A DNA stretch of 64,000 bases from Escherichia coli O157 typing phage 4, in the sequence record KP869102. One strand, written 5' to 3'. The position numbers and the translations under genes are program-made. Of the stretch, positions 52,794 to 64,000 are shown one piece after another (position 1 is the first letter of the stretch; the number at the start of each line of letters is the position of its first letter). A model generated the notes under the pieces. That model was given only the letters and a program-made list of their open reading frames with translations. It did not search any database and was not told the DNA's origin.

Positions 52794-52893
52794 NNNNNNN
52801 NNNNNNNNNNNNNNNNNNNNNNNNNNNNNNNNNNNNNNNNNNNNNNNNNNNNNNNNNNNNNNNNNNNNNNNNNNNNNNNNNNNNNNNNNNNNN
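52794..52893. other. assembly gap (run of N)
   Basis: 100 consecutive N. Confidence 0.99.
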
Positions 52894-53531: not shown

Positions 53532-53633
53532 CCNNNNNNNNNNNNNNNNNNNNNNNNNNNNNNNNNNNNNNNNNNNNNNNNNNNNNNNNNNNNNNNNNNN
53601 NNNNNNNNNNNNNNNNNNNNNNNNNNNNNNNNN
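53532..53633. other. assembly gap (run of N)
   Basis: About 100 consecutive N. Confidence 0.99.
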
Positions 53634-53949
53634 TGGCCTGAATCGCCCGGATACGGCGTTTTATAACCTCCTGATCCGTGCAATCGTATCCCCAAAAGTC
53701 TACAATTTTCGCGCCGCCAGCTTTTAAGCGGTATAATGTTTCTTGCATTTTGTAAGCTGGGATCGGTCGCGGTGTTACCTGGTCGCCTTTTTCATCCTTG
53801 TACTTGATTATGTAGTCCTCGTTGTCGTTGAATACCCAAAAAGGGTACTCTGTAAGGGCGTTGCTTTCTTTTTCGTTTTTAGATTGGATCTTGTTTACAA
53901 TTAAAGCCGTAGCAATAGCGCCAATAATAAAACTAGCCCCGCTGATCAT
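53634..53949 (-). CDS. hypothetical protein with N-terminal TM helix, partial (runs into gap)
   Basis: Minus ORF from ATG ~53949; 3-prime end lost in N run. Confidence 0.35.
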
Positions 53950-54024
53950 GTTACTTTCTCCTTTCATTGTGTTGATAAACTATCTTTATAGATGGCCCTG
54001 TTACCAGGACCACCGAAAAAATAA

Positions 54025-54270
54025 CTATTTCACAATGCCTACAAAACAGATCCCGCCTTCACCTATATAGGCAATATCGGTAATTTTATAATTTGTCAAG
54101 ATCCGCGTGTTCAGATCATTAATAAAATCGGTCATCGCGTTGGTGTAGTTGTCTTCCGTGTCTAAGGCATAATCCCAGGTGTAAACCTTTTTACGTCCGA
54201 AGCCTTTTACCATGATACGGGCGCTTTTGGTGTTGGTAGGGGCATAATATTTGGTGATTAGTGCTGCCAT
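54025..54270 (-). CDS. hypothetical protein
   Basis: 81 aa, AGGAG RBS. Confidence 0.4.
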   Translation of the reverse strand: MAALITKYYAPTNTKSARIMVKGFGRKKVYTWDYALDTEDNYTNAMTDFINDLNTRILTNYKITDIAYIGEGGICFVGIVK

Positions 54271-54359
54271 GGTTTTAACTCCTCTGAATTAGTTCAGTGT
54301 TAACAGTATAAAGTTTACTTTATTGATGGCCCTGAAGTCAAGGCCATCTAAAAATAAAC

Positions 54360-54701
54360 TTACTCGTTTTCTTCCAGCTCCGCAAGCTCTTCTTTTGCTT
54401 CTTCTAACTCTGTCTGTAGTTCCTGGTATTCTTCATCGTCCTCAATATCCAGGCTGTCGATGTAGTCGCTAAATCCGCAGCGGTAAGCGATAGGATCTAG
54501 CTCCTTGAGGATACGCGACGGAAGAAAAGAAATGTTTCCGATCATAATTTCGCCGTAGATCTCGTCTAACCATTCATCATAGTTTTCGTCGTACTTGTCC
54601 TCGTCGATTTCAAAGTTATCGATCTTGTTCTCAAGGTCTGCGATCTGTTTTTTCAGCGCGGCGATCTGCATAGCTTTTTCTGCGGCGGTCATAGTAGTCA
54701 T
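54360..54701 (-). CDS. hypothetical acidic coiled-coil protein
   Basis: 113 aa, AAGGAG RBS. Confidence 0.45.
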   Translation of the reverse strand: MTTMTAAEKAMQIAALKKQIADLENKIDNFEIDEDKYDENYDEWLDEIYGEIMIGNISFLPSRILKELDPIAYRCGFSDYIDSLDIEDDEEYQELQTELEEAKEELAELEENE

Positions 54702-54980
54702 GGTGTTTTCTCCTTTTGTGTGCTCTGGGAAGTTTTCCCGTTTACGTGTTTAAGTATAGCGATCTAAGTTAGTTTGTCAATTAAAAATTTAAGAAAAATT
54801 TTGCAAAACTGTTAGCGCTACTCATTAACATTTGCGCCAGGATGTAACCAATGATGCAAACGATAATAGTTACCTTTGTGTGCTGGCGTGTAGTACTCAT
54901 CTTTAAGCCCCCCTTTCCGCTCAACTGTGGTTAGTTTACTTTATTGATGGCCCTGGAGTCAAGGCCATCTAAAAATAAAC

Positions 54981-55376
54981 TCAGTACGTTTTCAGTACTT
55001 TCCCGTCCAACCTGTCTAACTGAATCTCAATAGCTGCAGAAAACCTATTGTAAACCACATCGCCCAAGGAGTCCAGCCAATCTATAACGTTATACACCTG
55101 CTCTTTATTCTTGCAAGTCCGGATCCGTTTCATTACGTAAGACGGATCAATATTAGTACTCCCGTTGTTGTGGTCATGCGCCTGGCCTGCTGCACTGGTT
55201 ATAGATTTTACAACCACCTGAAAGGGCTTTAAGGTGCCTTTTGCGTTCATCTCACGCGCTTTTGCGGCGCGGTTGTTATATGTTACACAACGGCGGCAAA
55301 TGTTGAATAAATGCATGTCAATAATTTTTTCATCGTTTGCCAGTTCGTTCATGATGCGGCGTACGTTCTTATTCAT
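54981..55376 (-). CDS. hypothetical protein
   Basis: 131 aa, AGAGGA RBS. Confidence 0.45.
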   Translation of the reverse strand: MNKNVRRIMNELANDEKIIDMHLFNICRRCVTYNNRAAKAREMNAKGTLKPFQVVVKSITSAAGQAHDHNNGSTNIDPSYVMKRIRTCKNKEQVYNVIDWLDSLGDVVYNRFSAAIEIQLDRLDGKVLKTY

Positions 55377-55460
55377 AGCTTTTCCTCTGTGTTGGCGGGA
55401 TGTTTCCCGCCTTTTGTGTCTAGTTTACTTGAATTTTGCAGCGTGTCAATAATTTTTTTT

Positions 55461-55859
55461 TTATTCGTGGGCACATGTTACAATGTGCTTTTTATAGCCC
55501 AGGTGGGCAGCAAGTGCCGCCAAAAACTCATCTTCATAGATCCAGCCGTTGGCAGTGATCCCCATAGCATTTAATGCGCTCTCAAGTGCTGCGTTAGCTT
55601 TATCATAACCGTGACCGCTCGCCTTGCCGCCAGTATAACCGTACTTATTGTTCTTGTTGTCGTGTATCCAAAAAACGCAGTAGTTAGTGTTACCGCTGGC
55701 GGCGGCATAGTACCGGATCTCCGCTACTTCGTGCAAATTATTATCATCGTCCAGGCCAACCAGATTATAAGCCTTGTAAAATCCACGATCACGGCGGCAG
55801 TTCTTGACATCAGAAAAAGAGAAGTCGGCATTGTCAAAATTAAAGGTTGTGGTTTTCAT
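55461..55859 (-). CDS. hypothetical protein
   Basis: 132-aa ORF. Confidence 0.45.
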   Translation of the reverse strand: MKTTTFNFDNADFSFSDVKNCRRDRGFYKAYNLVGLDDDNNLHEVAEIRYYAAASGNTNYCVFWIHDNKNNKYGYTGGKASGHGYDKANAALESALNAMGITANGWIYEDEFLAALAAHLGYKKHIVTCAHE

Positions 55860-55923
55860 GATTTTATCCTCTTAGTGTCTTTTGTGATTTCAGTATATTT
55901 TGTGTCGGGGCGTATGTCAATAC

Positions 55924-56121
55924 TTATTTTTTATTAAACCAGTGATTGATCTGACCTTTTGTCAGGGCGCAACGATTAAGCTGTTGCAGGGTATAGCTAT
56001 GACCGCGACGAAATTTATAAAGGCCTTGCCCGTTGTTGATGGTTACATCCACCAGGCAAACCACTTGATCGGTGACCACCTGGCGAGTGTTGCGACGTAC
56101 TTTGATTCCGTATGCGTTCAT
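55924..56121 (-). CDS. hypothetical basic protein
   Basis: 65-aa ORF. Confidence 0.35.
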   Translation of the reverse strand: MNAYGIKVRRNTRQVVTDQVVCLVDVTINNGQGLYKFRRGHSYTLQQLNRCALTKGQINHWFNKK

Positions 56122-56209
56122 GATTTTTTATCCTCTCTGTTAATTAGTGTGGTGTTGTTCACCTTGCGAGGATAAGAATAACAAGAACTGTCCGAGCTGT
56201 CAACCATTA

Positions 56210-56362
56210 GTTAAAATTATTTTTGCCCCTGCCAGGTTAACCATCATTTTTTCGTACTCTTCTTTATGTTCCAACGCTCCCGCCATAGCCTTTTCAACCA
56301 GGGCGATAGCCTCAGCGTCATTAATAGCTACATTTTCCAGGGGGATCATATTACCTTTCATT
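56210..56362 (-). CDS. small hypothetical protein (~50 aa)
   Basis: Minus ORF MKGNMIPLENVAINDAEAIALVEK... with AAGGGGAGG RBS; below ORF-track length cutoff. Confidence 0.3.
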
Positions 56363-56544
56363 TTTGTACCTCCCCTTCAATTGTTACCTATCCTATAGCA
56401 TAGGCCCACCAGGTTTACAAGCCTTCATTCTCTCCTGCCTGGTCAGTTAGGTCCTGCCAGGCTGGCCCCGCCAGGTTGCAGCGGTTAGCGCATCAGGTTA
56501 GAAAAATTTTTTGAAAAGTGTTGACAGCGGCCCCGCCAGGTGGC
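56231..56544. repeat. iteron-like array of CYGCCAGGT motifs (about 7 copies)
   Basis: cctgccaggtt, cccaccaggtt, cctgcctggtc, cctgccaggct, ccccgccaggtt, catcaggtt, ccccgccaggtg read directly. Confidence 0.55.
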
Positions 56545-56894
56545 ACAATATACCTATCGAAAGGACGGCAGGCACCGGTGACGGGGGAGGCAACCACCGG
56601 GGATGGACGCTGCATAAAATGAGAACGGTTATCATTATCATTTAAAAATTTATGCAAAAAATCCTTGCTTTCTTTGTCCTGTGTGATACTATAATAACAA
56701 GCCGGGGCAACAGGGGCCGGGAGACAATCACCGGGCCTGCCCGTTATTCTGCAAACGAGAATGATTATCATTCAAAATTCTAAATGAGAACTCCTCGCAT
56801 TTAATAAATTTAATTAGCATGCTAATTACCCTCCGTAACAATTTCCTATAAAACAGTATCCCATAAAATATTTCCATATAGAAATTTTAAAAAT

Positions 56895-57069
56895 CCATTT
56901 CTGAAAACGAAAAATCGATTTCGTCCCCAAAAATTTCAGGTCGAGATCCGGAACGATTTCCAGAAAATCCGATTTAGAAAACGAAAAACAGATCGAGTAC
57001 TGAGAAATTTATCGAGAAAAATTTTCAGAAAATTCAATCTTTGAAACGAAAAACAGATCGAGTACCTGG
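56895..57069. repeat. AT-rich direct repeats (unit ending GAAAACGAAAAACAGATCGAGTAC), two full copies and one partial
   Basis: Near-identical ~44-bp copies at ~56957-57000 and ~57023-57066, partial copy ~56895-56925. Confidence 0.6.
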
Positions 57070-57377
57070 AAAGCTGCACTGCAACTTCAAGATAGTGGTT
57101 AGATTATTACCATAAAAGGTCAAGGGTAAGTGGAGGAAGTTCTAGTAGAAGGATGTGAGCATGTGTGGGAAATCTATAATGGTGGCCTGGAATATGGTGC
57201 AAACGATAGGATGAGTTATTCAGCTTGTCGCGCCTACTCTGAAAAATCCATTTTAGTTTTCGATCCATTTTCTGATTTTCTAAGAATTTTAAAATATCCA
57301 GCCCGGTGAAATATCAAAAGGAGGAAATCCATTTTAGAAATCCCCCTTATACTTGATATGCCAGGAATTTTCAAGTA

Positions 57378-57707
57378 TCAGTTGTCTTTGTTTTTAGGTT
57401 TGTACATGCGCAGAGGTATGGTCTTTGTAACATTCCATTTCCTCAACCCTTCCCAGCTCCAGTTGTGGGCGTGGTATCCGGTTATGCATGCACTACTGGA
57501 GTGATCGTAAGCATAAGAGAACGCTAAGCGCACCAGGTGGGGCCAGTCCTTCCATGGTTGTGGACCGTAAGCTTTTCTCCAACACCGACACAAACTAAAT
57601 GTCTCAAGGATAGGAAGGATAACAAACCCATACACTGTCACCAAAATAGTCAGTGCAATGATTGTCAGGAACACATACCCTGCAGTTGAAATGATGATCT
57701 CTGTCAT
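57378..57707 (-). CDS. membrane protein
   Basis: N-terminal TM helices; 109 aa. Confidence 0.4.
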   Translation of the reverse strand: MTEIIISTAGYVFLTIIALTILVTVYGFVILPILETFSLCRCWRKAYGPQPWKDWPHLVRLAFSYAYDHSSSACITGYHAHNWSWEGLRKWNVTKTIPLRMYKPKNKDN

Positions 57708-57907
57708 TTGTCGTCCCCTTTCTTACGGATATAGATGTGAGAACCTGCCTGTATATAAATTTCTCGACCATCTTCTGCGAAGATGTGGAATACACGGTCA
57801 CCTTCGTACTCAATACGAGATATCTTCATAATGGTCTTTCCACCTGGGATACGGATCTCGTCCCCCACAGCGATGTTCCATGCAGATTTAAGCTTAAACA
57901 TCTGCAC
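57704..57907 (-). CDS. hypothetical protein
   Basis: 67 aa, overlapping stop/start. Confidence 0.4.
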   Translation of the reverse strand: MQMFKLKSAWNIAVGDEIRIPGGKTIMKISRIEYEGDRVFHIFAEDGREIYIQAGSHIYIRKKGDDK

Positions 57908-58139
57908 CCTCCTTTGGGAACTTGAACTCTGGCATAGCCATATACGCTACAACAGGGTTGTGATCAAAGTAGAACTGACCGTTAATTATCCCGGTTTTAC
58001 TCACATAGTTACCAGATCCTGCAAGAACAACCTCGCAAGCTCCGAAATCTACATTGCCATCCTCATCAGCCATGGCTACGATATACTTTCCTAGAGGCAT
58101 GTTTTTAACGCCGTCTACAAATGTCCACCCTTTGTTCAT
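57894..58139 (-). CDS. hypothetical protein
   Basis: 81 aa. Confidence 0.4.
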   Translation of the reverse strand: MNKGWTFVDGVKNMPLGKYIVAMADEDGNVDFGACEVVLAGSGNYVSKTGIINGQFYFDHNPVVAYMAMPEFKFPKEGADV

Positions 58140-58159
58140 ACTTTATCTCCTGCACTTTC

Positions 58160-58492
58160 TTAAGGTAACCAGTAAACAATCTCGCCTTTCAGCTTCATGT
58201 CGTTTCCAACATAAATTTCCCAGCCATCCATCTTAGCAACTGTAGGCCCAAAGTCATCCGCACCCCTTACCTCTTTCCAGGCTCCGTAGTCAGGTTGCCA
58301 GATATAGAATCCACCTTCTTTGTCCCATGCTCCGTACACTACGTTTAACAGGTTTCCCATTGCAACAATGGTGGGCCGTGGGAATAATACATCTACAGAT
58401 GCGCCACAATTTCGGGTATCTTTTAAGTTGCAATCCCAAAAGATGTCTGCCAGTGTGGCGGCGATAGCTTTACGTCTTTCCAATGTTACCAT
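58160..58492 (-). CDS. hypothetical protein
   Basis: 110 aa. Confidence 0.4.
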   Translation of the reverse strand: MVTLERRKAIAATLADIFWDCNLKDTRNCGASVDVLFPRPTIVAMGNLLNVVYGAWDKEGGFYIWQPDYGAWKEVRGADDFGPTVAKMDGWEIYVGNDMKLKGEIVYWLP

Positions 58493-58502
58493 GGCACGAT
58501 AC

Positions 58503-58694
58503 TCACTTGTTGTTAATAAGTTCTAAAACTTTCTGTCTTACTTTGTCAAGGTCTGTTGATTCAAAAACTGTGCGATATCCCCAACTTTGCCCATAGGAGT
58601 GACTGCAATCTCCGTAGCACCATTGCTCAATTTGATAGTATTCAAGGAAGGGGTGCTGTCTAACTATGATGCCATCCCGGTTAAAAATTACCAT
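58503..58694 (-). CDS. hypothetical protein
   Basis: 63 aa. Confidence 0.35.
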   Translation of the reverse strand: MVIFNRDGIIVRQHPFLEYYQIEQWCYGDCSHSYGQSWGYRTVFESTDLDKVRQKVLELINNK

Positions 58695-58757
58695 AATACG
58701 TCGCTCTCTGTTAGTCTGTGCGTATATTATACACTGTAGTTTTCAGATGTCAATCTT

Positions 58758-59009
58758 TTACAGGTTACTCCAGTATACTCGGCATTTACATTTCGGGCAA
58801 TGAGGCTCTTTTATGTAATAACCATCAGTCTTTGGAACACTTTTTGGTGCAGTTTTAAGATTGTACCGAGTAAAACACCGGAAGCAGGTTACCTCTCCAA
58901 CCTGTTGATCGTTTATCCACTCGCCAGAGTAAAGCTCTCTCTTGTTTCTCATAATTCTCTCCCAAATCCTCTGCAATCTTATACCAAAATCTCCAGCCAG
59001 AAAGCACAC
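58758..59009 (-). CDS. zinc-ribbon protein
   Basis: CFRCFTRYNL...HCPKCKC Cys pairs. Confidence 0.4.
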   Translation of the reverse strand: MCFLAGDFGIRLQRIWERIMRNKRELYSGEWINDQQVGEVTCFRCFTRYNLKTAPKSVPKTDGYYIKEPHCPKCKCRVYWSNL

Positions 59010-59202
59010 GGGAACACTTTGATGATTGAATCTTTACCTGGTTCAGCAGTTCTTTTTCCGTAGGGTAGGTAGAAATACCCTCCTGCAGATTCGAACACAG
59101 CCCCTTCGGTTGTATCTATCACAGCCAGAATTAAGATTTTAGTCTCCATAGTGCTCCCTCTCTCAATCGTTGTGGTGACTATACCATCTCAAAAACCCGC
59201 TG

Positions 59203-59760
59203 TCAACACTTTTTGTACTCCACCACGATAATATTCATATCAAAAGTGGCAAGGTTAATAACGTCCTCTACGTGCTCCCACTTCAAACCGCCTATGCCGC
59301 ACCCGATCTTAGGGATGTAGAATGGTAAAGTCGATCCACTGAATACCTCATTGACTAGCTCAAAGCCTTTCAGGATTGAGAAATATTCAGCATTAGGTCC
59401 TGGGTAGAACTGAGTATACAGATTGATTCCGTAGACAATACCTCTCGGAGATAAGTGCTCCCATCGGGAGAACGCACCCAGTTTACTTAGGCAACCGTGT
59501 CTGGTCTCTTTGTCAGCTGCCAATGCTTGAGGGAACTCACGGGCAATCTGTTTTGCTATCCCCTTGCCCATTGTGTGGAAGCAGTTACAACCGTGGATCA
59601 GGTGACCAGCACCGCTCTTAAAAAGGGAGATTAAATCTCCCTCTACAGTATCAATAATCACGGTATGCCAGCTCCTCTTCCGCAATTTCAAAAAACTCAT
59701 CCCAACCTTGTGGCATATTTGAGTTGCCGAAGTGGCTTTCATAGTAAAGGTTCTCACCAC
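59203..59760 (-). CDS. macro-domain protein (ADP-ribose binding/processing)
   Basis: HLIHGCNCFHTMGKGIAKQIAREFP resembles the macro-domain core; true start probably an internal ATG. Confidence 0.55.
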   Translation of the reverse strand: MVRTFTMKATSATQICHKVGMSFLKLRKRSWHTVIIDTVEGDLISLFKSGAGHLIHGCNCFHTMGKGIAKQIAREFPQALAADKETRHGCLSKLGAFSRWEHLSPRGIVYGINLYTQFYPGPNAEYFSILKGFELVNEVFSGSTLPFYIPKIGCGIGGLKWEHVEDVINLATFDMNIIVVEYKKC

Positions 59761-60076
59761 TTGGGAGATAGAAATCTGTTACCTCGTAGAATCCACAATC
59801 GTCGCACTCGCCTTCTTCAAACTTGGCCTCAACCTTAATACCGAGGAAGGTGAAAAGTTTATGAATATCTTCAGTTTCGAACTCCCAGTGAATGTTGTTT
59901 TCCGCATCGGTGTAGAACTGGATCAGCAGACCATTGTCCAGTTTACCAAAATACTCTGTGAAGTAACTTCCTTCCCAGAAATCTCTATGACAAATAATAT
60001 CCATGCGTTTGCCCATAATAATGGTGTGAGCGTTTTGGGCATCGTCGCGAATCAGTTTTGGCATTTCATAGATCAT
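59651..60076 (-). CDS. hypothetical acidic protein
   Basis: 141-aa ORF; 3-prime end overlaps macro-domain ORF. Confidence 0.4.
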   Translation of the reverse strand: MIYEMPKLIRDDAQNAHTIIMGKRMDIICHRDFWEGSYFTEYFGKLDNGLLIQFYTDAENNIHWEFETEDIHKLFTFLGIKVEAKFEEGECDDCGFYEVTDFYLPSGENLYYESHFGNSNMPQGWDEFFEIAEEELAYRDY

Positions 60077-60144
60077 CTTAGTTCTCCGGGTTCAACAGGT
60101 GGTGGTGCTACAGGAAGATCATAAAACATAGCTATCACAGTCTC

Positions 60145-60342
60145 TTACACAGGAATTGCTTCAAACAGGCCGTTATCTATACCGTCCTTCAGATAGAGAT
60201 TATATTCTATATCGGTATCTGTATAAAGGGCAGCATCCAGCATTCTATCTGTGAGTCCATCCATTGGGTGGAGAAACCACCACCCACGCCAGTCAAAGTA
60301 ACAGCCTGGTGCATCTTCTCTTACACGGATTCGATAAATCAT
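60145..60342 (-). CDS. hypothetical protein (gene A; second copy starts at 61334)
   Basis: 65 aa; identical N-terminus seen again at 61285-61334. Confidence 0.4.
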   Translation of the reverse strand: MIYRIRVREDAPGCYFDWRGWWFLHPMDGLTDRMLDAALYTDTDIEYNLYLKDGIDNGLFEAIPV

Positions 60343-60438
60343 GGGCAGTGGCCTCCTGTTAGTTATACATCCCAGTTTTCTTCGTTCATCGCGTCCTCCC
60401 GTTATATGAAGTTATAATTGCACACCTTTCAACCTGTG

Positions 60439-60855
60439 TCAACAGAAAACTTCAACAAATTCTTCCACAGTTTTAATGTCGTGGGAAAAAGGTTTACGGC
60501 TATAACGGGCAATAGCACTATCAACCACCGCCCGGTACTCCAAATCTTCAGAATATTTCATGAAGCATTGCAGCGTCTCTGGGCAGATAGCTAAATAGCT
60601 CCACCACCCTTCTTCAGATTGGTAGTCGAATCCCATACTCTCCAACCATGAAGCATATACTCCTGCACCCTCAAGCCAGTGAGTATTTTCATCCAGAAAC
60701 TTGTTAATAGACATGTGAGCTTCTAAGCATTTATCTAGCTCTTTTCCGTTAACCAGCCACGCACTGACCGTGGCGCATCCAAGGTCTACAGATTGAGTTG
60801 ACAGGTTGTATTGGTCATAGTTCTCAGGTTTAACAATGATATCTTCTAATGTCAT
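60439..60855 (-). CDS. hypothetical protein (gene B, copy 1)
   Basis: 138 aa; ~98 percent identical to 61431..61847. Confidence 0.45.
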   Translation of the reverse strand: MTLEDIIVKPENYDQYNLSTQSVDLGCATVSAWLVNGKELDKCLEAHMSINKFLDENTHWLEGAGVYASWLESMGFDYQSEEGWWSYLAICPETLQCFMKYSEDLEYRAVVDSAIARYSRKPFSHDIKTVEEFVEVFC

Positions 60856-60874
60856 TTTTCAGATCTCCTTATAC

Positions 60875-60903
60875 AAAAATGCCCCACCCTTTCGGGCAGG
60901 GCT
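60875..60903 (-). terminator. rho-independent terminator (second copy at ~61867-61895)
   Basis: On minus strand GCCCTGCCC-GAAA-GGGTGGGGC followed by ATTTTT. Confidence 0.65.
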
Positions 60904-60917
60904 ATGTTAACTAATTG

Positions 60918-61184
60918 TTAAAAAGGGATGTCATCATCAAAGGAGTACTGTGCTGGATTCTGATCCATTGGGTCATCTTCCTCATCATTTACAGGAGGAG
61001 CGTCTACAGTGTTTTGCTGTGGAGCTGCTTCCTGTTTGGTAGCCTGAGGTTCTTGATGGTCAGTTGACCCAGCACCGTTCTTGATCCAATCGTACAACGG
61101 CTCAGCCAGATTAGTCAAGACATCTTTTGCTTCTGCAGTAATTGCCGCTGCAAAATCATCAACTTTCGTTTTCTTGTCAATACG
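60918..61184 (-). CDS. SSB-like protein, C-terminal fragment ending DDDIPF (5-prime part lost in gap)
   Basis: Gly/Pro/Gln-rich linker then acidic tip ...PAQYSFDDDIPF-stop. Confidence 0.4.
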   Translation of the reverse strand, partial: RIDKKTKVDDFAAAITAEAKDVLTNLAEPLYDWIKNGAGSTDHQEPQATKQEAAPQQNTVDAPPVNDEEDDPMDQNPAQYSFDDDIPF

Positions 61185-61284
61185 NNNNNNNNNNNNNNNN
61201 NNNNNNNNNNNNNNNNNNNNNNNNNNNNNNNNNNNNNNNNNNNNNNNNNNNNNNNNNNNNNNNNNNNNNNNNNNNNNNNNNNNN
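61185..61284. other. assembly gap (run of N)
   Basis: 100 consecutive N. Confidence 0.99.
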
Positions 61285-61430
61285 TCAAAGTAACAGCCTG
61301 GTGCATCTTCTCTTACACGGATTCGATAAATCATGGGCAGTGGCCTCCTGTTAGTTATACATCCCAGTTTTCTTCGTTCATCGCGTCCTCCCGTTCTATG
61401 AAGTTATAATTGCACACCTTTCCACCTGTG

Positions 61431-61847
61431 TCAACAGAAAACTTCAACAAACTCTTCCACAGCTTTAATGTCGTGGGAAAAAGGTTTACGGCTATAACGG
61501 GCAATAGCACTATCAACCACCGCCCGGTACTCCAAATCTTCAGAATATTTCATGAAGCATTGCAGCGTCTCTGGGCAGATAGCTAAATAGCTCCACCACC
61601 CCTCTTCAGATTGGTAGTCGAATCCCATACTCTCCAACCATGAAGCATATACTCCTGCACCCTCTAGCCAGTGGGTATTTTCATCAAGAAATTTATTCAC
61701 CGACATGTGTGCTTCCAGGCACTCGTCAAGCTCTTTTCCGTTAACCAGCCATGCACTGACTGTGGCGCATCCGAGGTCTACAGATTGAGTTGACAGGTTG
61801 TATTGGTCATAGTTCTCAGGTTTAACAATGATATCTTCTAATGTCAT
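61431..61847 (-). CDS. hypothetical protein (gene B, copy 2)
   Basis: 138 aa; differs from copy 1 at a few residues. Confidence 0.45.
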   Translation of the reverse strand: MTLEDIIVKPENYDQYNLSTQSVDLGCATVSAWLVNGKELDECLEAHMSVNKFLDENTHWLEGAGVYASWLESMGFDYQSEEGWWSYLAICPETLQCFMKYSEDLEYRAVVDSAIARYSRKPFSHDIKAVEEFVEVFC

Positions 61848-61909
61848 TTTTCAGATCTCCTTATACAAAAATGCCCCACCCTTTCGGGCAGGGCTATGTC
61901 AGTTAGGTG

Positions 61910-62533
61910 CTAAAAGTATTCATAGAGGTATCCATCGGGAGCTGGAATTTTTTCATGAATGTAGTAATCAACACATATTCCGGTTTCTCTTCTACAAGAA
62001 TTGTGGGATACCCATTCTTTAAGAACGTTGCCATTCATGTCCAGCCTCCTTACATTTTTACACCGTCTACCGCTGGTGCTTCTATGCAACAGAATATCCT
62101 CCGTCTGCTTGTCTTTATTTTCTCCCCAGGTCGTTAAACGGATATTATCAAAAGAGTACCCTTTGAAATCATCTATCCTGTCACAAGAAGGCTTTTTCCT
62201 TTTGTCGTATCCGCTGGCTACCCACTGGTCATACAACTCTTTGTAACCGTTCAGGTATAGCCACTCCTTAAACTCTTTTTTGGTGTAAGTCGGAGGAGGG
62301 TGACCTCTTTGCTTGCTGTTGCACTTTTGAGCCTTGTACAACACGCGTATTACACCTTTTTCTGAAGAGTCGTGGGAAAACTGGTCAGCCTCCCTACTGG
62401 CCTTCTTACAACACTCTTTGCACTTATTAAGATGACCGTCAGACATCTTTGGGTGTTTGTAGAACTCGGAGAGGTTTTTCACCTCTCCGCACTTGATGCA
62501 TCTCTTACAATGCGTAGATTCTACTTTTGCCAT
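61910..62533 (-). CDS. putative HNH-type homing endonuclease
   Basis: N-terminal Cys cluster [13 protein letters not shown]...CKEC, SFDNIRL...GEN segment; present only in copy 2 of the duplicated locus. Confidence 0.5.
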
Positions 62534-63027
62534 ATTGCAGACCTACCGGAGCGAAAGGAATGTCATCACAGAAGTCATACTGTGCTGGATTCTGATCCAT
62601 CGGGTCATCTTCCTCATCATTTACAGGAGGAGCGTCTACAGTGTTTTGCTGTGGAGCTGTTTCCTGTTTGGCAGCCTGAGGTTCTTGATGGTCAGTTGAC
62701 CCAGCACCGTTCTTGATCCAATCGTACAACGGCTCAGCCAGATTAGTCAAGACATCTTTTGCTTCTGCAGTAATTGCCGCTGCAAAATCATCAACTTTCG
62801 TTTTCTTGTCAATACGGCGACAAGCGTTCAACACCGCATTACCGACACTGGCACCTACTTCATCTTCAGTTCGGTTGGTGGCCTGAGCATACTCTTTCTT
62901 AAGCTCAATGGTGACTACGTGCAGTGTTTTAGCCACGCCCAGTGGGTCGTCTACCTTAAACCCGCGATCCAGGATGATCTGCAACGCATTGATGCTATGC
63001 CCCGTTTCCACACCGATAGGGTCGTAA
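62505..63027 (-). CDS. SSB-like protein (copy 2), partial, with C-terminal extension past DDIPF
   Basis: Same linker and acidic tail as 60918 copy but frame continues ...[23 protein letters not shown]; N-terminus lost at gap. Confidence 0.4.
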
Positions 63028-63127
63028 NNNNNNNNNNNNNNNNNNNNNNNNNNNNNNNNNNNNNNNNNNNNNNNNNNNNNNNNNNNNNNNNNNNNNNNNN
63101 NNNNNNNNNNNNNNNNNNNNNNNNNNN
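63028..63127. other. assembly gap (run of N)
   Basis: 100 consecutive N. Confidence 0.99.
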
Positions 63128-63416
63128 TTACGACCCTATCGGTGTGGAAACGGGGCATAGCATCAATGCGTTGCAGATCATCCTGGATCGCGGGTTTAAG
63201 GTAGACGACCCACTGGGCGTGGCTAAAACACTGCACGTAGTCACCATTGAGCTTAAGAAAGAGTATGCTCAAGCCACCAACCGAACTGAAGATGAAGTAG
63301 GTGCCAGTGTCGGTAATGCGGTGTTGAACGCTTGTCGCCGTATTGACAAGAAAACGAAAGTTGATGATTTTGCAGCGGCAATTACTGCAGAAGCAAAAGA
63401 TGTCTTGACTAATCTG
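63128..63416. repeat. inverted duplicate of 62738..63027 (probable assembly artefact)
   Basis: Reverse complement of 63128-63416 matches 62738-63027 with one mismatch; arms flank an N gap. Confidence 0.7.
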
Positions 63417-63516
63417 NNNNNNNNNNNNNNNNNNNNNNNNNNNNNNNNNNNNNNNNNNNNNNNNNNNNNNNNNNNNNNNNNNNNNNNNNNNNNNNNNNNN
63501 NNNNNNNNNNNNNNNN
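63417..63516. other. assembly gap (run of N)
   Basis: 100 consecutive N. Confidence 0.99.
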
Positions 63517-63585
63517 GAAATGGGCAAAAAAGATGCAGAGGACAGCTCAATTCGGGAGTCATATCTACTACAAGGAGCGCAATAA

Positions 63586-64000
63586 ATGATTGTAAACAGT
63601 AATGAAACTAAAGCAGTACTAACCGGAAATATGGAGGTCACCAGGGGCTCAATTTCTCTGAACAAAGAGACTTTTGGGCTAATCATTAAAGGGATTTACG
63701 AAGATAAGGTGCTGGCAAGCTGCCGTGAACCAATCTTCAATGCTGTGGACTCCCATGTTGAGTCTGGACGGGGTGATGTACCGATCATCATTCACTCTCC
63801 TACAGACCTTGAACCATACTTCTTTGTGCAGGACGTTGGATTGGGCATGTCGGAAGAGATGGTCCGCAACACTTTCATGAACCTCGGGGAGTCAACCAAG
63901 CGCAACAGCAACGCTCTGGTAGGTAATAAAGGTGTAGGTTCAAAGGCCCCGTTCAGCATGGTGGACACTTTCGATGTGATCAGTGTGCACAACGGTGTTG
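63586..64000 (+). CDS. GHKL-type ATPase (Hsp90/MutL/GyrB-like ATP-binding fold), partial at window end
   Basis: AAGGAG RBS; N-box EPIFNAVDSH, G1 box QDVGLGM, G2 box GNKGVGSKAPF; no stop before window end. Confidence 0.5.
   Translation, partial: MIVNSNETKAVLTGNMEVTRGSISLNKETFGLIIKGIYEDKVLASCREPIFNAVDSHVESGRGDVPIIIHSPTDLEPYFFVQDVGLGMSEEMVRNTFMNLGESTKRNSNALVGNKGVGSKAPFSMVDTFDVISVHNGV

Follow-up and report, generated by a model that had tools for sequence, protein, structure and literature searches.

A stretch of 64,000 nucleotides (nt) from Escherichia coli O157 typing phage 4 (sequence record KP869102; the whole stretch is called the window below) holds the 3' end of one gene in two forms. In one form the gene closes with the acidic tip Asp-Asp-Asp-Ile-Pro-Phe, of the kind that ends SSB, the E. 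coli protein that binds single-stranded DNA; in the other, 15 residues follow the Phe and the gene runs into an open reading frame (ORF) for an HNH-type endonuclease. The question raised by this locus is what the 15 residues are, and why such a tip should be internal. The analysis identifies the two forms as alleles (haplotypes) of a single locus, one of which carries an inserted endonuclease gene, and the 15 residues as an instance of a conserved peptide module. We see about an even chance that extension and endonuclease gene form a single mobile unit, inserted at the boundary between the Phe codon and the stop codon, in which the peptide would serve as a selected replacement C-terminus.

The features concerned are the following:

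60881..60902, minus strand: terminator-like hairpin, GCCCTGCCCGAAAGGGTGGGGC with a T run behind it; it lies 15 nt past the stop of allele 1 and is identical to the hairpin after the HNH gene.
60918..61184, minus strand: 3' end of the putative SSB gene, HNH-less allele 1 (88 codons and stop), ending ...YSFDDDIPF-TAA; the contig stops at 61184, and the junction is of the type found in records without the HNH gene.
61873..61894, minus strand: the same terminator-like hairpin, 3' of the HNH gene and identical to that of allele 1.
61910..62533, minus strand: HNH/endonuclease VII-like ORF of 207 amino acids (phrog_1035, E=4e-41), overlapping the end of the SSB ORF by 29 nt.
62505..63027, minus strand: 3' end of the putative SSB gene, HNH-bearing allele 2 (173 codons and stop), with helical domain, acidic linker, CDDIPF and extension; annotated rv5_gp209 / P766_gp199.
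62508..62552, minus strand: 15-codon extension, the conserved tail module, whose TAT-G (Tyr-Gly) codons hold the HNH start in another frame.
62553..62570, minus strand: C-D-D-I-P-F codons, the SSB-type tip, internal in allele 2; the alleles cease to be homologous within the Phe codon (62553/62554).
63128..63416, plus strand: small separate contig of the putative SSB gene in the opposite orientation, encoding a part that ends ...LTNL and overlapping the HNH-less contig.

The two tails belong to alleles of one locus

The window contains five runs of exactly 100 N (52794-52893, 53534-53633, 61185-61284, 63028-63127 and 63417-63516) and is a scaffold of joined contigs, whose order and orientation are partly arbitrary. 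The DDIPF tails are on different contigs: the first on 53634-61184, which ends within the gene, and the second on 61285-63027. The latter contig duplicates 60293-60907 at approximately 96% identity (23 single-nucleotide polymorphisms in 615 nt), continues with the HNH ORF and then with the same SSB gene. Apart from a single synonymous mismatch, contig 63128-63416 equals 62739-63027 in reverse complement; with the end of the HNH-less contig it shares an exact overlap of 78 nt. An 'ORF' of 393 amino acids at 62505-63686 spans an N gap and is an artefact, as is any feature that crosses a gap.

Reading of the ORFs confirmed both tails as described in the first-pass annotation: a plain DDIPF end in one case, the tip followed by 15 residues in the other. 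The allele 1 ORF (minus strand, stop at 60918) ends ...PAQYSFDDDIPF-stop, the longer tail stretch being ...NPAQYSFDDDIPF-TAA, and the Phe of its D-D-D-I-P-F tip (60918-60938) is the last residue. A six-frame scan of the whole 64-kb window for D-x-[IVLT]-P-F gave just the two tail sites, so the tip motif is not a chance occurrence.

The first-pass annotation had taken the two tails for two copies of the gene. Since the contigs are separate and overlapping or redundant, and since the gene is single-copy in every complete Vequintavirus genome listed, they are alleles and not paralogues or two copies within one genome.

By sequence, the source is an rV5-like phage (Vequintavirus). The HNH-bearing contig is 99.7% identical to phage JES2013 over 1743 nt and 98.3% identical to rV5, and the allele 2 fragment is 99-100% identical to JES2013 gp199. 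The whole contig is present in 50 of the 116 deposited Vequintavirus records, type phage rV5 included; the remaining records match the HNH-less junction. A frameshift or a chimeric join could in principle have made the longer tail, and a fragmented, N-gapped scaffold with redundant contigs is in keeping with such an artefact. The match to JES2013 and the occurrence of the same frame in 50 independently deposited genomes leave this explanation a negligible probability. The extension is therefore real and the Phe of allele 2 is no longer C-terminal, as had been noted; the sequencing error considered at that time does not account for an allele that recurs in this way.

The gene encodes a putative phage SSB

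The gene corresponds to rV5 gp209 and JES2013 gp199, a protein of 423 amino acids annotated as hypothetical. Full-length gp209 matches phrog_4477, a phage family of unassigned function (E=4.6e-174, residues 1-408 against profile positions 1-393). The profile stops at the tip Phe, residue 408 of 423, and the extension falls outside the family model. Pfam searches with the window fragment and with full-length gp209 gave no family, PF00436 included, even at E<=1. When the PDB sequences were searched with the family profile, the sole match was the tail of E. coli SSB (...PPMDFDDDIPF, residues 152-178), in agreement with the earlier view that this is a genuine E. coli SSB-like tip.

An AlphaFold2 model of gp209 was built on 24 homologues. 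In the model, a disordered Gln-rich linker joins a confident beta domain at residues 1-140 to a small beta domain (170-235), after which come a four-helix bundle (250-355) and an acidic tail (359-423). The tail is disordered, with a predicted local distance difference test score below 50, a value that has no bearing on docking. Foldseek searches of viral models with this structure returned DUF2815, 'phage ssDNA-binding domain' and 'DNA helix destabilizing' proteins; in the PDB the DUF2815 structures 4klk and 4jg2 were among the top matches, all of which were weak. The predicted structure may correspond to SSB, RPA and gp2.5-like/DUF2815 folds. The gene lies in a replication module, together with an annotated T7-like DNA polymerase and a DnaB_C gp4-like primase-helicase. 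The latter (rV5 gp225, L019:3545-5623) ends ...GFEDDETPF-stop, which is a second acidic tip closing in Pro-Phe within the same replisome.

From the model and the gene neighbourhood we conclude that gp209 is probably the SSB of the phage, with a gp2.5-like OB fold located N-terminally, beyond the contig break; its homologues should be annotated as such. No OB fold had been seen in the first-pass annotation because the window holds just the C-terminal 173 (allele 2) or 88 (allele 1) codons of the gene. Its alternative of an SSB or a mimic of the SSB tip can be narrowed: the predicted OB fold outside the window favours the former, and the mimic is no longer called for.

The insertion lies between the Phe codon and the terminator

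Homology between the alleles stops within the Phe codon and resumes just upstream of the common terminator hairpin; the HNH gene consequently sits between the SSB ORF and the SSB terminator. The insertion in allele 2 is 643 nt long and lies exactly between the Phe codon and the stop codon with its terminator. Among near-identical Vequintavirus genomes, presence or absence of the HNH gene is polymorphic at this one precise site. The 30 nt adjacent to the junction differ at 8 positions between the alleles, whereas further upstream only 3 of 234 differ. Patches of this kind typically mark the target of a homing endonuclease or a co-conversion tract; here the patch would be an indirect sign of homing.

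The extension is a conserved peptide module

The extension follows the pattern AP[VI]GLQY-x4-[IL][YH]x[LIM]. A more general definition of the module was drawn from 124 extended sequences: D-[DESN]-x-[IVT]-P-F, then [AS]-P-x-[GT]-L-x-[YFHE], then 7-9 further residues with a hydrophobic end, giving an extension of 14-16 residues in total. Allele 2 fits this definition. The length is kept within 14-16 residues in 122 of the 124 sequences, and the last residue is I, M, L, V or F in 105.

Within the rV5 SSB family, represented by 72 cluster representatives, 27 are extended and 44 stop at the Phe. Both states occur in every major clade of the family, down to 26-30% identity; ...DEDIPFAPIGLQYGISLLHAMP is one example of the tails. 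When a profile of the tail was run against 1.84 billion cluster representatives (E<=1e-3), 95 matches were obtained, 57 of them extended and 34 with plain tips. The 22 longer proteins among the extended ones comprise five PF00436 proteins, one DUF669 protein and 16 without any Pfam family; another search with a tail profile gave matches of at most 86 residues, mostly fragments.

The module is not tied to one type of protein. Canonical PF00436 SSBs from temperate phages and from prophages (mEp013, L011 and L012) have it after the tip, as do SSB fragments, so named by NCBI, from Proteus, Providencia, E. coli, Salmonella and Klebsiella. It is found on a protein of 243 amino acids without Pfam family (L013), and on the primase-helicases of GAP31, SalP219, NINP13076 and approximately 30 Klebsiella phages. 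Several records of the GAP31 type have the motif at two places each, and the site in the primase-helicase was confirmed.

Each residue of the invariant F-A-P-x-G-L is written with 2 to 5 different codons. Over the last 57 nt, rV5 and lambdoid mEp013 are identical at 43 positions (75%); read in the SSB frame they share 18 of 20 residues, and in each other frame 8 of 19. To judge from this synonymous codon variation and frame-specific conservation, selection acts on the peptide as it is read in the SSB frame, and on this sequence evidence fortuitous read-through is excluded.

Such read-through had been implied by the first-pass annotation, according to which the stop was lost where the HNH gene begins. 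In that case the HNH insertion would have destroyed the stop codon, and the 15 residues would be an accident, tolerated or mildly harmful. Within the window this account fits, the extension being present just in the HNH-bearing allele and overlapping the HNH start. It is very improbable in the light of the wider comparison, where the same peptide, with its tightly constrained length and its conservation in the SSB frame, is met in homologues of 26-30% identity, in unrelated proteins and in genes that have no HNH neighbour (SSE121, Kashira and temperate-phage SSBs, as well as phi92 with a truncated ORF).

Full-text searches of the literature, using peptide strings and the combinations tip with phage extension, rV5 with SSB, and Vequintavirus with homing endonuclease, found no description of the extension. 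A beta-clamp-binding motif (QL[SD]LF) was considered for it and rejected, as the pattern does not fit. The Sak4/SSB pair of HK620 was rejected as a related case, as the HK620 SSB ends NDYPPF without extension. A degron or a PDZ-like hydrophobic C-terminus can be named as speculation.

One family of HNH endonucleases starts inside the extension

The HNH protein of the window matches phrog_1035, 'endonuclease VII', and more weakly the HNH PHROGs. Its first 48 or so residues (C-x2-C...EFYKH..M.DGH.NKCK.C), a zinc-finger module, recur in endonucleases located directly behind the extension. At least seven contexts have this HNH family behind the extension: rV5 itself, a 76%-identical SSB (L014), the phi92-type SSB of nieznany, the GAP31 and SalP219 primase-helicases, and two proteins from metagenomes (268 and 480 amino acids). 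By contrast, none of approximately 10 tip-only contexts examined had an HNH gene of this family. Among Vequintavirus SSBs and Seunavirus primase-helicases, the examined genomes with the extension have the HNH gene and those without it (4MG, KB57) have none.

The enzymes of the GAP31 type are full-length homologues of one another (E 1e-25 to 1e-53) and show by eye a ...HGHHH...CSKCH...H motif. In the rV5 type (61910-62533; L014:2928-3542) an Arg stands at the expected position of the first catalytic His, where HNH_3-type enzymes have D-H-I-D; this type may be divergent or inactive.

The HNH start is embedded in the extension in a recurrent way. In most contexts the ATG is formed by the Tyr codon TAT and the next G (Q-Y-G, Q-Y-A or M-Y-D); in L014 and GAP31 it lies in ...TAT GCC CTG TAA, with M-P-C-K written over Y-A-L-stop. 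The SSB ORF reaches its stop 11-29 nt past the HNH start. The possibility that the HNH ORF is an SSB-HNH fusion from upstream, or a frameshift product, was rejected, as rV5 has an in-frame TAG four codons upstream of the HNH ATG.

This arrangement admits an explanation in which the extension is conserved for the benefit of the endonuclease and has no role in the SSB: its task might be translational coupling or reinitiation, or a pause caused by the nascent peptide through which the HNH start becomes exposed. The start lies in the Tyr-Gly, Tyr-Ala or Tyr-Asp codons of the extension, no promoter-like or terminator-like site was found between the SSB and HNH ORFs on the minus strand, and a nascent-peptide role would likewise conserve amino acids. 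We nevertheless regard this explanation as improbable: length and pattern are kept in HNH-free genes, including variants that have no embedded ATG (GLPYPRH, GLQYPALL), and F-A-P-x-G-L, the most conserved part, is upstream of the HNH ORF. Some share of the conservation may all the same serve expression of the endonuclease.

Current annotation gives several of these endonucleases a wrong name or a wrong start. GAP31_256 (L017:3074-3571) belongs to this family of HNH endonucleases and is named 'baseplate wedge protein gp25'. A 'hypothetical protein' of SalP219 (L026:1829-2203) is that enzyme too, with the call set at an internal Met; it probably starts at the ATG inside the extension. Behind the extension of the 268-residue protein P0148 (L029:830-960), the HNH frame is open through the whole extension and has no start codon, TAC-G replacing TAT-G; this HNH gene would be either decaying or unusually expressed.

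The extension also occurs without the endonuclease

In L016, a relative with 83% identity, the extension is intact beside remnants of both HNH ends. In phi92 it is accompanied by a short truncated ORF ('MVETSC...') that begins at the HNH start codon, at the place where nieznany has the full enzyme. No such endonuclease adjoins the gene in SSE121, Kashira, mEp013, L011-L013, P0154 or P0161, and some of the HNH-free variants (GLPYPRH..., GLQYPALL...) have no embedded ATG.

In mEp013 an ORF of 97 amino acids that does not encode an HNH protein (mEp013_26, L003:2544-2837) starts at the same embedded ATG (MAKAGST...) within the extension that a canonical SSB carries. Here the start of an HNH gene may have survived in fusion with another gene, or the annotation may coincide by chance.

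Many extension-bearing genes thus have no HNH gene or remnant nearby, and the history could have run in the opposite direction: the extension would be an autonomous docking motif that predates the HNH gene, the endonuclease would home to its conserved DNA, and tip-only alleles would have lost the motif. Conserved coding sequence is a typical target of homing endonucleases. The motif stands on at least four unrelated scaffolds and is under selection at the protein level; moreover, in phages of the GAP31 type an SSB-like gene and the primase-helicase can both carry it, which recalls the interchangeable acidic tails of T7 gp2.5 and gp4. Against this, the HNH-free alleles examined in Vequintavirus and among Seunavirus primase-helicases are entirely without the motif, so that at these loci it behaves as part of the insertion. 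In addition, the start codon and first residues of the HNH protein are encoded inside the motif, which fits co-evolution better than the chance presence of an ATG. Taking both sides together, we judge the motif-first history unlikely, while giving it more weight than any of the explanations set aside above.

The preferred reading, that module and HNH gene entered as one mobile unit, has several points to its disadvantage. Approximately eight extension-bearing genes have neither an HNH gene nor a recognisable remnant, among them Proteus-type SSBs whose extension (GLPYPRH...) lacks the embedded ATG, and the module may be older than the HNH gene and independent of it. The HNH protein of the rV5 type shares only some 48 N-terminal residues with that of the GAP31 type. 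The HNH protein of the window has no Pfam match and is a putative endonuclease. The loci examined for gene context were picked opportunistically and are not a random sample. Finally, the joint mobility of module and HNH gene is inferred from their distribution.

Comparison with known systems

Allele 1 and many of its homologues resemble the C-terminus of E. coli SSB (...MDFDDDIPF) in ending with [DE]F/W-D-D-D-I-P-F after a disordered linker rich in Pro, Gln and acidic residues. They are unlike it in that the DNA-binding domain of gp209 is not PF00436 and that, in allele 2, a further 15 residues come after the Phe. In partners of the SSB tip a hydrophobic pocket receives the terminal Phe, and basic residues at the rim of the pocket probably contact the C-terminal carboxyl group (PMC3632105).

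A second likeness is to the replication proteins of T7, whose gp2.5 and gp4 both have acidic tails ending in Phe; no extended variant of these tails is known. The fold of gp209 may be gp2.5-/DUF2815-like, its tail is disordered and acidic, and its genome encodes a T7-like polymerase and a gp4-like primase-helicase ending ...DDETPF. In related phages SSB and primase-helicase can carry the same tail, extension included. Unlike gp2.5, gp209 is much larger (423 amino acids, with an extra beta domain and a helical bundle), and its tip is of the E. coli type and not of the T7 type. Contact with the T7 polymerase is made by the gp2.5 tail, in which the terminal Phe is essential, and the tail of gp4 can be imitated by a DTDF peptide (PMC12339929).

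Free-standing homing endonucleases of phages, such as the T4 seg and mob genes or HNH genes located between conserved genes, share with the present case the presence/absence polymorphism, the precise insertion, the divergent patch at the junction and the existence of decayed copies. The present case differs in two respects: the insertion is not confined to intergenic DNA but adds to the host ORF, in frame, a conserved peptide overlapping the start of the endonuclease, and the same endonuclease family stands behind the same peptide in host genes that are not homologous.

A possible mechanism

In the single-unit reading, module and HNH gene would move together into genes that end in an acidic ...D-x-P-F, those of SSBs and of primase-helicases. 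The HNH start would be carried within the module, and the HNH gene would be co-transcribed with the SSB gene. The module itself would be a selected short linear motif acting as the new C-terminus. It would bury the alpha-carboxylate of the Phe, which the canonical SSB-tip pockets probably contact, and it would offer a new hydrophobic C-terminal end instead.

An effect of the extension on partner binding may be expected. By comparison with the E. coli tip, an internal Phe should weaken the canonical contacts with the tip pockets. The acidic stretch that electrostatic docking on the phage polymerase would require, as in T7, is retained. The host protein would remain functional, possibly with a changed preference of partners, and the module would persist after decay of the HNH gene. 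By analogy with T7, the candidate partner is the phage's own T7-like polymerase or primase-helicase; alternatively, it may be sought among the host proteins that bind the SSB tip.

A more specific version of this mechanism is that the HNH family carries its own in-frame 'adapter' peptide, which is grafted onto the D-D-x-P-F hub of the SSB or primase-helicase that it invades, so that the tip is internalised and a second conserved docking end is added. We put this version forward tentatively, as a possibility with somewhat less than an even chance.

Other observations on the window

Contig 63517-64000 begins with a rIIA-like gene and would represent the other end of the rV5 map, the rV5 record being closed by rIIB. 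A region of approximately 600 nt without long ORFs (56772-57377) contains three imperfect direct repeats of about 62 nt (56872-56933, 56946-57007 and 57011-57072), which have 61-77% identity and are rich in GAAAACGAAAAA motifs; this may be a regulatory or origin-like region. The ORF at 59203-59760 (minus strand) is the gene annotated as 'phosphatase' (tk.4-like) in rV5 and JES2013, and its relatives show a faint Macro-domain match.

Among the database records, 16-21 of the MG0656xx series, labelled 'Campylobacter phage' (host C. jejuni), show 96-98% identity with rV5-like phages of E. coli, and some are fragmentary (75 kb). By sequence these records look mislabelled or contaminated, and the window could derive from a similar assembly.

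Implications

The SSB tip, gp2.5-like SSBs and free-standing HNH genes were already known. What is new is that the tip bears a conserved cap, that this cap recurs on replication proteins without homology to one another, and that overlapping coding sequence links it with one endonuclease family.

The C-terminal tip of SSB is among the best-studied protein-interaction hubs of bacteria, and here its Phe stands 14-16 residues from the end, followed by a peptide under selection of its own, in a defined set of SSBs of phages and mobile elements and in primase-helicases. Three possibilities follow: the tip works differently in these proteins, the phage uncouples its SSB from the partners of the host, or the added peptide recruits something new. 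HNH-bearing and HNH-less Vequintaviruses are both present in collections and constitute natural isogenic pairs.

If the adapter version is true, phage and prophage SSBs of Enterobacterales and Vibrio would share a second hub peptide with a common partner, and a selfish element would have an unrecognised way of occupying an essential gene without splicing. The link to the endonuclease suggests in this sense an undescribed route by which homing elements may come to occupy the end of an essential ORF.

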